Of a stretch of 64,000 nt of DNA, positions 32,990 to 34,189 are shown piece by piece. The stretch is from Escherichia coli (GTDB taxonomy: Bacteria; Pseudomonadota; Gammaproteobacteria; Enterobacterales; Enterobacteriaceae). Under the pieces are notes generated by a model that searched no databases, had not been told where the DNA came from, and saw only the letters and a list, made by a program, of their open reading frames with translations. How positions within the stretch are numbered: the stretch's first letter is position 1; every line of letters begins with the position of its first letter. A program made the position numbers and the translations under genes. Location: assembly GCF_044324785.1 (NCBI RefSeq), contig NZ_CP172127.1; one strand, 5' to 3'.

Positions 32990-33420
32990 TTGGTGAAAAC
33001 CAATCAATAAACCATTTATCAATAGGTAAGTACCGGAAATTATTCCAGTAGAATATTTTCAGGCGATTGCCTATTAATAAATACATTATTGATAGATAAG
33101 TGCCTTCTGTGATTTGCCCGCAAATCACAGAAGATGAAAACCTATCAATACGGGATATTTTCACGGAAATACCAATTAATACTCCAGAATATCTCCTGAC
33201 CATATACTCTGAAACCTGTAAGAACTGCATCAGATATTGAGAGACCATATAGATATAAGTGTGAAATTATTTTGTTTCCAATGATTTCAGGCGAAAACCT
33301 ATCAATGCATCTGTTTTCAATAGGCAGCCACCTTCCGTGATTAACATGTTAATCACGGAAGGTGAAAAGCTATCAATAATCGATATTTTCACGGAATTAC
33401 CACTTAATACATCCCAAAAA
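32990..33420. repeat. Array of palindromic sites with GTGATT-N-AATCAC cores and repeated TATCAATA motifs
   Basis: cttctGTGATTtgcccgcAAATCACagaag at about 33104-33133 and ccttccGTGATTaacatgttAATCACggaagg at about 33329-33364, each followed by gaaaa(c/g)ctatcaata...gatattttcacggaa; a third site gaGTGATTacagggtAATCACt lies at about 34005-34027. Confidence 0.6.
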
Positions 33421-34189
33421 ATGCGCCATAAAATACCGGGCAATCTTTCCTGATACACATTATCACTGCACCAGCTATACAGAGACAAAATAATCTGCAC
33501 CAGCCCCTGTAAATCGGTTATCTGTGCCAGTGTCCCGCCGCTCTACCTGTTCAGGGTTGTGCCAGTTTCTGGCCCTTTGGTTTTCGGCCCTTTCCGGTCA
33601 GGCGCTGTTACCCTTATTGCCCCTTAACCTTTATGACCCTTTCCCTTTCTGACGCAACCAGTTTATTTTGAAATGCTCCATGACAGTCTGCACCAGACTG
33701 TATTTTCACCACAGGATAACGATCACAAAGTGCAAAAAAATAACATGAAGCACCGAAGATTGTTAATCTATATGTAGCAGGTAATGATGTCAAAAACTGT
33801 CGCAGCATTTTTTATAAAATTATGAGACATTCTGTGGGCATATAATATATGTCACAAGATGCAGGAAAACAAAGAGAGAGTTTTCAGATATAATCCTGCG
33901 TCAGAATTAATGTGATGCCCCGGTGAATTTACATTTTAAAATTTCCCTGTCCCGTAATATCGGTAAAAACGATTGAAACACCAGCTATTAATCGGGAACG
34001 TTTCGAGTGATTACAGGGTAATCACTATAATATCCCGGCAAACTATATTGGTTAAGCAGGAGAATCTGATCAGTTGATACTTATTCGTCATGCTGTAACG
34101 ATATTTTCACAATATAAACCCGTTCGCCCCCTGCGCCAGATCCGGTACAGAGGGTACGATAAATCGCTGTCGTTACGCAGTAACGTACT

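Follow-up and report, generated by a model that had tools for sequence, protein, structure and literature searches.

In a 64,000-nt stretch of Escherichia coli DNA (contig NZ_CP172127.1 of assembly GCF_044324785.1; the whole stretch is called the window below), we analyzed an unannotated spacer of 1.36 kb between two convergent genes of an island that starts at a tRNA-Asn gene. One of these genes encodes a P4-type integrase and the other a tyrosine-recombinase-like protein of the PF12835 family. We showed that the spacer, which is non-coding, holds three palindromes with a common half-site, two of them within an old tandem duplication. The reading that we favour, with a probability of roughly 0.4, is that they may be accessory cis-acting sites in duplex DNA, with the half-site TGATTW-N5-6-WAATCA, for a putative DNA-binding protein. 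The analysis established that this DNA does not code for protein, that it is confined to one lineage and one locus, that its dyad symmetry is kept through compensated Watson-Crick changes, and that it contains a conserved box.

Palindromes and repeat units of the spacer

The sequence-only reading of this segment had drawn attention to three GTGATT-N-AATCAC palindromes, and all of the window's copies indeed lie within it. The pattern GTGATT-N(1-12)-AATCAC occurs at 33109-33128, 33337-33356 and 34007-34025 and nowhere else in the 64 kb, while shuffled sequences contained a mean of 0.06 matches and none of 100 reached three. The first palindrome, palB1 (33104-33133; CTTCTGTGATTTGC-CC-GCAAATCACAGAAG), has 14-bp arms around a 2-nt centre, and palB2 (33329-33364; CACCTTCCGTGATTAACATGTTAATCACGGAAGGTG) is a perfect 36-bp palindrome with 18-bp arms and no spacer; the arm length of 15-16 bp given earlier was therefore approximate. 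The third, P3, expected near 34005-34027, was located at 34006-34026 (AGTGATTAC-AGG-GTAATCACT; 9-bp arms, 3-nt centre).

Only the core TGATTW-N5-6-WAATCA is invariant when palB1, palB2 and P3 are compared in all lineages. Even with a centre of 5-7 nt, this motif has three sites in 64 kb and no further copy, against 0.11 expected. Among 40 loci fetched for comparison (designated by L numbers), the Escherichia asn-type loci have it at homologous positions, and all other matches, one each in L013, L032, L033 and L035, are far from the spacer. The half-sites of P3 are invariant in all Escherichia loci that retain the surrounding block (block X, below), and only the centre varies (CAGGG, CAGGGG, CCGGG); P3 is absent from L007 and L017.

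The left block of the spacer is an old tandem duplication. Its period is 228 bp, not the approximately 110 bp proposed at first, and a 131-nt core (33052-33182 versus 33280-33410) is 73% identical between the copies, which are too diverged for the duplication to have been called by Tandem Repeats Finder. The anatomy of the unit was derived from an alignment of 15 units from 9 loci. Three inverted repeats, palA, hairpin D and palB, are followed by a box with inverted ends (the C-box) and by a variable tail with the TGCACCAG motif. Repeat unit 1 (33036-33262, plus strand) consists of palA (33033-33063), hairpin D (33070-33096), palB1, the C-box (33134-33182) and a variable tail with a degenerate TGCATCAG motif; repeat unit 2 (33263-33500, plus strand) consists of palA (33260-33291), hairpin D (33298-33324), palB2, the C-box (33362-33410) and a tail in which TGCACCAG occurs at 33467 and 33496. 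A third, incomplete copy ("unit 0", 32964-33035, plus strand), with a degenerate palA followed by GGTGAAAACCAATCAATAAACCATTTATCAATAGG, is supported by weak nhmmer matches to unit positions 2-70 in L002, L015, L019 and L020; its palA is perfect in L062 (AAAATTATTTGG-CC-CCAAATAATTTT).

The palA sequence is AAATTATT..AATAATTT; it is degenerate in the window and has perfect arms of 12-16 bp in L004, L007, L017, L020 and L062. Hairpin D (CCTATYAAT..ATTRATAGG) accounts for the TATCAATA motifs, of which four exact copies and about eight with one mismatch are found within 32917-33378. Both palB palindromes are followed, as had been described, by gaaaa(c/g)ctatcaata and gatattttcacggaa. The C-box is asymmetric, 49 bp long (TGAAAAnCTATCAATAnnnGATATTTTCACGGAAnTACCAnTTAATAC) and bounded by the inverted ends GTGAAAA/TTTTCAC. 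It is the slowest-evolving part of the unit: its identity is 82-88% both between paralogous units and between lineages, in comparison with 30-60% for linkers and tails.

The segment had been described as ORF-poor and AT-rich, and it was confirmed to be non-coding. The GC content is 29-37% across 32900-33500, in comparison with 51-60% in the flanking genes. The two minus-strand open reading frames (ORFs), 32964-33248 and 33267-33500, are unconserved: most related loci carry stops or frameshifts in them, and the open frames differ in length and place. Every ORF that the spacer has in the window is interrupted in other loci. Across lineages there is no conserved short ORF per repeat of the kind expected for a small-protein or type I toxin locus.

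To the right lies a second Escherichia-specific block, block X (33660-34213; 33-43% GC), which is at least 84% conserved among Escherichia loci. P3 lies within this block, and CGATATTTTCAC has its third copy there, at 34099-34110. Another small palindrome, ACAGTCTG-CAC-CAGACTGT, which contains one TGCACCAG, is present at 33683-33701, in the conserved part of the spacer.

Compensated changes in the palindromes

Over the 15 aligned units, 99% of palB cells are paired, and both sides have changed in 6 of the 14 pairs. The pairing is Watson-Crick in 207 of 210 cells and G-U in 1/210, and in no helix are the wobble pairs biased towards one strand. The covariation score of the whole structure is 0.142 versus 0.088 in shuffles (none of 500 reached 0.142), and it is at most 0.062 when the partners are slid by 1-3 columns; for helices D and C, covariation support is weak. 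The palB variants, which differ by lineage, are CTTCTGTGATTTGC (unit 1), CACCTTCCGTGATTAACATG (unit 2), TCTTCCGTGATTAACGCG (L005), ATTTTGATTTGCATGC (L004) and CCATGATT..AATCATGG (L062). The L062 copy has the compensated variant CATGATT/AATCATG, and a one-sided intermediate was found in L019. The arms of palA are likewise compensated (GAAATTATT/AATAATTTC versus GAACTTATT/AATAAGTTC), and the very centre of the palindrome has changed symmetrically, from CATG to CGCG, in L005.

Compensated changes that are exclusively Watson-Crick, together with a symmetric centre, fit duplex symmetry or arm-to-arm conversion better than selection for an RNA hairpin. The symmetric change of the centre also argues against selection on the loop of a single-stranded hairpin, since such selection would not require symmetry. 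On the evidence of the alignment, the features of palB thus point to duplex-DNA symmetry rather than to an RNA hairpin. Whatever their function, these units offer a clean case from nature of concerted evolution between the arms of long palindromes.

An Escherichia-specific insert at a cargo spot

A search of 5426 complete E. coli genomes with a 1251-nt query detected the spacer in 519, and the unit block alone was matched in 460; all matches were chromosomal and none was on a plasmid. At the inspected loci the spacer lies between the same two genes, at a minimum of three different asn-tRNA genes. The number of matched places per genome had a median of 2 and reached 6, the extra ones fitting cross-matches between units and a second copy of the island. 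A nhmmer profile found the units only at the asn-tRNA island spacer. No phage homology was detected by blastn against 50,697 phage records, and plasmids (PLSDB) gave one 78-nt match, confined to the conserved element described below, the units remaining without a match. Scans of viral contig collections with unit motifs returned only E. coli fragments and chance matches, and a scan of a metagenome collection returned 27 loci, 22 of which represent this E. coli-type locus, the remainder having no relation to it. We also judged L061, a 1141-bp metagenome contig (32% GC), to be unrelated: at 42-239 it has two copies of the 20-nt motif TATCAATA-N4-ATATTTTCACGG, both within inverted repeats of its own (44-51 nt) and next to several tandem-repeat arrays, which we regard as a coincidence or as a common host-factor site of some origin region.

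Conservation in related elements, on which the sequence-only reading had made its case depend, was thus only partly found. About 460-519 of the 5426 E. coli genomes retain the palindromes at homologous positions, but the module in other genera and at other E. coli tRNA sites lacks the units, which are missing from L008-L014, L032-L040 and plasmid pEB102. In the same module of Salmonella, and at other E. coli and E. albertii sites, the spacer is only about 190 bp long, from which it follows that the AT-rich DNA is an Escherichia-specific insert. On the sequence comparison, this insert of approximately 1.17 kb, made up of two blocks (the units, 32950-33500, and 33660-34213 with P3), is lineage-specific accessory DNA.

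Between the two blocks lies a conserved element of about 90 nt (33556-33649, minus strand), purine-rich on the minus strand, with six AAGGG and the sequence GGGTAACAGCGCC. It is the only part of the spacer common to Serratia, Klebsiella (K. indica), Cedecea, Salmonella (S. arizonae), Erwinia and others. In other genera it is situated about 50 nt after the PF12835 gene, with a terminator hairpin directly next to it in most cases (not in Serratia and Cedecea). It is possibly a G-quadruplex, a protein-binding tract or a 3' untranslated region (3'UTR) element. The hairpin in question, a bidirectional terminator 3' of the P4-type integrase gene (32883-32912; AAGCAGATC...GATCTGCTT), forms the left boundary of the spacer; conserved across all genera, it was found in L009-L014 and in every Escherichia locus.

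At the same spot, Cedecea (L011, 6105-6674) has a gene for a 189-amino-acid P-loop NTPase, and Serratia (L008, approximately 5985-6580) has about 600 bp of unrelated AT-rich DNA. The loci compared mark the interval from the conserved element to the integrase terminator as an insertion site for cargo. The number of units varies between loci (1 or 2), and in two E. coli strains the insertion sequence IS1 truncates the unit array (L016, approximately 2873-2888; L018, approximately 2576-2592), the rest of the module being deleted. This variation in number and the truncation by IS1 indicate that the element is dispensable.

Proposed accessory sites in duplex DNA

According to the reading that we favour, the insert occupies the normally about 190-bp spacer in the backbone of a tRNA-integrated mobilizable island. 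The palindromes palB1, palB2 and P3 would act as dyad-symmetric sites for a dimeric or multimeric protein, with the C-box as an additional sequence-specific box, and the cluster would be an optional cargo, regulatory or protein-titrating, rather than the core origin of the island. We prefer this reading because a half-site with fixed spacing is common to three places and because the C-box is asymmetric and conserved in sequence. Repeated dyad-symmetric sites with a conserved half-site and a fixed spacing, as expected of an operator array, were indeed found. Protein binding, the identity of the protein and the effect of its binding are things that we infer only.

The earlier proposal of operator sites for a dimeric protein stands as far as the three sites with a common core are concerned, but several observations weigh against it and against our reading alike. 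No candidate binding protein, and no cognate regulator, co-occurs with the sites. The genes for the integrase, the PF12835 protein and the Ner-like helix-turn-helix (HTH) protein are pseudogenes or absent in many carrier strains, i.e. they are decaying, and the same island genes also occur in modules without the sites. The link that had been proposed with the Ner-like protein did not hold: its HTH_35 gene is present in site-free modules, is a pseudogene in Z1323 and has no motif copy near it, and the ATCC 8739 locus has no annotated HTH gene. Moreover, the half-sites of palA are similar but oppositely oriented (TTATTCAC..GTGAATAA), so a single dimer geometry does not easily explain both palA and palB. 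A protein site needs neither perfect symmetry over 36 bp nor compensated changes outside the core, and this excess weakens the case, since hairpin-templated correction can yield both without selection. Finally, an array that has 1 or 2 units and is truncated by IS1 in some strains is dispensable.

Two other kinds of site were considered and rejected. The consensus sequences of CRP, FNR, LexA, Fur, PurR, TrpR, ArcA, NarL and Lrp sites, compared by eye, have a spacing that fits none of the palindromes. As an integrase arm-type site common with the attL arm at 31486, CGTGAAAAT is not enriched (30 matches versus 22 expected).

Alternative explanations

One alternative, which we hold to be unlikely, is an accessory transfer origin or single-stranded DNA hairpin module, analogous in function to the STAXI motif. 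The hairpins of the units would arise on the strand being transferred and would serve the neighbouring relaxase, or the relaxosome, priming or early expression of a helper element. The sequence-only reading had suggested a transfer function, and this part of it gained from the finding that the neighbouring "integrase" is a PF12835 protein. The intact copy of ATCC 8739 (294 amino acids) matches PF12835 over its full length (E = 6.7e-60) and PF12834 (E = 2.9e-39), and the R-K-H-R-H-Y catalytic residues of tyrosine recombinases are readable in it; the PDB contains no sequence relative. The PF12835 domain is the signature used by the Burrus laboratory for MpsA-like atypical relaxases (PMC10484663), which makes a link to transfer not far-fetched. 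The family was named MOB_M in a 2026 preprint and reported there as the commonest chromosomal relaxase type, 96% of which adjoin an integrase (bioRxiv 10.64898/2026.01.13.699239); our assignment of the protein to the MOB_M type rests on the Pfam family. Transfer origins of this family are arrays of inverted repeats (PMC6414798; PMC8152469), and on pEB102, a plasmid of the MPF_G type, a STAXI motif is found on each side of the PF12835 gene, one of them immediately 3' of it. As single-stranded DNA the hairpins are strongly favoured (z-scores of -7 to -9), and exclusively Watson-Crick pairing suits DNA more than RNA.

The position of the units, however, speaks against this explanation. The MOB_M transfer origin normally lies upstream of the relaxase gene, in known and predicted cases (PMC6414798; bioRxiv 10.64898/2026.01.13.699239), whereas the units lie 3' of the PF12835 gene, 700-1250 bp from its stop codon; upstream of it are the EFASI RNA motif and GC-rich inverted repeats. 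In addition, most related modules have no units, PLSDB plasmids show no similarity to them, wobble pairs lack a strand bias, the centre has changed symmetrically, and in the window, as in many carriers, the PF12835 gene has decayed to a pseudogene. With a relaxase-family neighbour, but neither an upstream location nor conservation among the elements that share the relaxase, the units are probably not the primary origin of transfer (oriT) of the island, because they are located 3' of the relaxase-like gene and are missing from most relatives.

We consider it about equally doubtful that the DNA is functionless AT-rich filler, or the remnant of a decayed cargo, whose palindrome arms are kept perfect by intramolecular or sister-strand template switching and not by selection. 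The correction of quasi-palindromes is a known mutational mechanism in E. coli, and a symmetric centre change and exclusively Watson-Crick pairs are its expected products. The spacer is also a variable insertion spot, occupied by the P-loop gene in Cedecea and by about 600 bp of AT-rich DNA in Serratia. Unit number varies, IS1 insertions are tolerated and the island genes are decaying. Template switching cannot, on the other hand, explain the conservation of the C-box, the best conserved part of the unit (82-88% versus 30-60% for linkers), because this box is non-palindromic and arm conversion does not apply to it. The invariance of the TGATT core at three sites in all lineages, and the retention of the block at no fewer than three asn-tRNA genes in about 9% of complete genomes, also argue against neutrality.

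A structured RNA appears more improbable than either of these. It would form the long 3'UTR of the minus-strand PF12835 mRNA, or that of a read-through transcript from the integrase gene, its hairpins blocking exonucleases or convergent transcription, or yielding small RNAs. On the minus strand, no terminator-like site was found between the PF12835 stop codon and the terminator at 32883-32912, which makes transcription through the region probable. Each strand gives much better folds than shuffled sequences do (z-scores of -6.7 and -7.1), and base-pair covariation is present. Against this stand the single G-U pair among the 210 palB cells, the lack of strand bias, the symmetry of the "loop" bases and the weak support for helices D and C. 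The hairpins are not followed by a U-tract, no conserved promoter was seen at palB, and the promoter and terminator scan of the region did not rise above shuffles; P3 abuts TATAAT (34026-34031), and the same hexamer is CATAAT or CGTAAT in other lineages. Within 32913-34213, Rfam 15 gave nothing for the units at the gathering threshold or at E <= 10. The only matches there were eukaryotic snoRNA and miRNA models with 17-22 bits, far below their gathering scores; EFASI (34851-34978) alone reached its gathering score in that scan.

Of similarly small likelihood, taken together, are two forms in which the units would represent a novel class of non-coding accessory cargo in mobilizable islands. They might be strand-active hairpin modules that function with MOB_M relaxases in conjugative transfer, a counterpart of STAXI, or they might be a decoy array, in which centromere- or operator-like sites titrate a plasmid or phage protein and incompatibility serves as defence in a family of islands that carries defence genes.

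An iteron-type replication origin of the excised island, also suggested by the sequence-only reading, is very improbable. There is a loose resemblance to an origin in that the AT-rich DNA lies beside four TGYRCCAG repeats (33467-33565, 27-35 bp apart) and a GC-rich block. Direct repeats of iteron size (17-22 bp), regularly spaced about 22 bp apart, were not found, as the period is 228 bp and TATCAATA and TGYRCCAG are irregularly spaced. Neither the DnaA box TTWTNCACA nor the integration host factor (IHF) consensus WATCAANNNNTTR occurs in 32913-34213. Neither the annotated stretch around the feature nor the set of large ORFs between 41000 and 58500 included a rep or primase gene (annotation did not extend to the ORFs of 41-57 kb). 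The TGYRCCAG repeats also run through the PF12835 gene and flip their orientation upstream, and hence are not a local iteron set. An origin "of the island" is further contradicted by the lack of units in the same module where it occurs in other genera or at different tRNA sites of E. coli, with a spacer of about 190 bp.

The weakest candidate, a protein encoded by the two minus-strand ORFs or by a decayed Abi-like gene, has next to no likelihood, because the ORFs are broken in most loci and differ in length and position and the Abi_2 similarity stops at 8 residues (E = 0.28, in a tiny database), even though a 99-amino-acid hypothetical protein is annotated here in one RefSeq genome and INTGYFHG of the C-box matches an Abi-like metagenome protein (presumably of the Abi_2 type; the idea was prompted by a 24-nt pattern match).

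Genomic context and the region upstream of the PF12835 gene

In the window, the island starts at the tRNA-Asn gene (31352-31427) that follows yeeO. The P4-type integrase gene (31589-32850, plus strand) adjoins this tRNA gene and converges on the spacer, and the PF12834 + PF12835 ("Integrase_1") gene, MpsA/MOB_M-like, occupies 34214-34795 on the minus strand. Both recombinase genes are frameshifted in the window, and one or both are pseudogenes in most of the inspected E. coli loci. The search for attR revealed no direct repeat and only four intact tRNA-Asn genes, so the end of the island is not defined by a direct repeat. The island looks immobilised.

The EFASI RNA motif (34851-34978, minus strand; 100.8 bits) is followed by further island genes in the order Ner/SfsB-like helix-turn-helix gene, 153-amino-acid ORF, C4 antisense RNA and isrK motifs, and Rhs gene. 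The C4 antisense RNA, its a1/b1 target motif and isrK, immunity elements of the P1/P7 type, are located at 36413-36598 (minus strand), upstream of the 153-amino-acid ORF and the Ner-like gene, and recur in the module of other genera. All 12 loci scanned (L007-L014, L032, L036, L038 and L068) have EFASI at a distance of about 60 nt on the upstream side of the PF12835 gene; they represent at least eight genera and include the conjugative plasmid pEB102. Its function is given as unknown in Rfam.

Upstream of EFASI there are perfect GC-rich inverted repeats of 12 bp at 35080-35121 and 35562-35606, and their counterparts in other genera have arms of 16-20 nt (e.g. L009, 4666-4705 and 4068-4111). 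By analogy with the oriT of SGI1 (Salmonella genomic island 1), which is GC-rich, we regard the repeats of the window as candidates for the true oriT of the module.

The TGYRCCAG motif (extended consensus CTGCACCAGA) is strongly polar, with eight copies on the plus strand at 33467-34852 and four on the minus strand at 35126-35483. The orientation switches at EFASI, the plus-strand copies extending through and beyond the PF12835 gene, and all genera examined show the same polarity (loci of Serratia, Klebsiella, Cedecea, Salmonella and Erwinia). As CTGGCGCA represents preferred E. coli codons, copies of TGYRCCAG within the gene weigh less than TGCACCAG copies in non-coding DNA. The two sides are joined by inverted repeats of 20-25 nt (33453-33477 with 35285-35309, and 34121-34140 with 35125-35144).

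Plasmid pEB102 (L068) shows the module in a conjugative setting. The STAXI motifs at 8148-8297 and 9940-10089 flank the PF12835 gene, with EFASI between the upstream STAXI and this gene; genes for an anti-restriction-like protein, a methylase, a UvrD helicase and a MOB_H TraI then follow.

Small, optional and non-coding, the repeat is in itself of limited direct importance. It is the surrounding module, with its PF12835 gene, EFASI and polar repeats, that deserves follow-up.

Comparison with known systems

The units resemble the dispersed repeats of E. coli (repetitive extragenic palindromic elements and bacterial interspersed mosaic elements, REP/BIME, and the enterobacterial repetitive intergenic consensus, ERIC) in being palindromic, with conserved linkers, and in lying between convergent genes. 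These repeats, of which REP is GC-rich, are present in hundreds of dispersed copies, whereas the units occur at one locus type only; the many copies at unrelated loci that mark REP/BIME, ERIC or miniature inverted-repeat transposable elements (MITE) were not seen, as the inspected places were all the asn-tRNA island spacer.

The operators of dimeric helix-turn-helix proteins (e.g. the CRP type, TGTGA-N6-TCACA) share with the palindromes a dyad symmetry, a half-site core of 5-6 bp, a fixed centre of 5-6 bp and the presence of several sites per region. They differ in that the units are symmetric over 14-18 bp per arm, with compensated changes, and show no conserved overlap with a promoter. The C-box (AAGGTGAAA ... 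CGAT(A)TTT(T)CAC) recalls the right half of parS of P1, which we take to read AAGGTGAAATCGCCACGATTTCACC (box A2 - box B2 - box A3), and the module also carries a C4 antisense RNA of the P1 type. The spacing differs (9 nt in P1 versus 17 nt here), and neither a box B nor a ParB gene is present here.

The STAXI motif (Rfam RF01728) is similar as a repeated structured unit that flanks PF12835 genes, with a copy immediately 3' of the gene on pEB102, and has been suspected of acting in single-stranded form. At about 150 nt, with approximately 50% GC and pseudoknot repeats, it differs from the units, which are simple palindromes in AT-rich DNA, and neither a sequence match nor a covariance-model match connects the two.

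Another close parallel is the oriT/mpsA-mpsB module of SGI1, from the MOB_M group (MpsA, TcpM, MobK). In both cases a non-coding array of inverted repeats lies by a tyrosine-recombinase-like PF12835 gene, in an island that is integrated at a tRNA or other gene and has a separate true integrase. The oriT of SGI1, 125 bp in length, is GC-rich, located upstream of mpsA and family-wide, in contrast to the units, which are AT-rich, downstream, Escherichia-specific and optional, and the separate mpsB of SGI1 has no equivalent in this island. The oriT of pIGRK also has a G-rich tract, like the conserved element at 33556-33649. The mobilization of SGI1 depends on the essential sgm-sRNA, encoded between oriT and mpsA (PMC9299015), where EFASI stands in the present module, and by analogy EFASI may be its equivalent, or part of an oriT. 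The repeat marks a cargo insertion spot in a very common backbone, composed of the P4-type integrase, the PF12835 MOB_M-like gene and EFASI RNA; if EFASI equals sgm-sRNA, its function, and the mobility of many defence and type VI secretion system (T6SS)/Rhs islands, would become directly testable.

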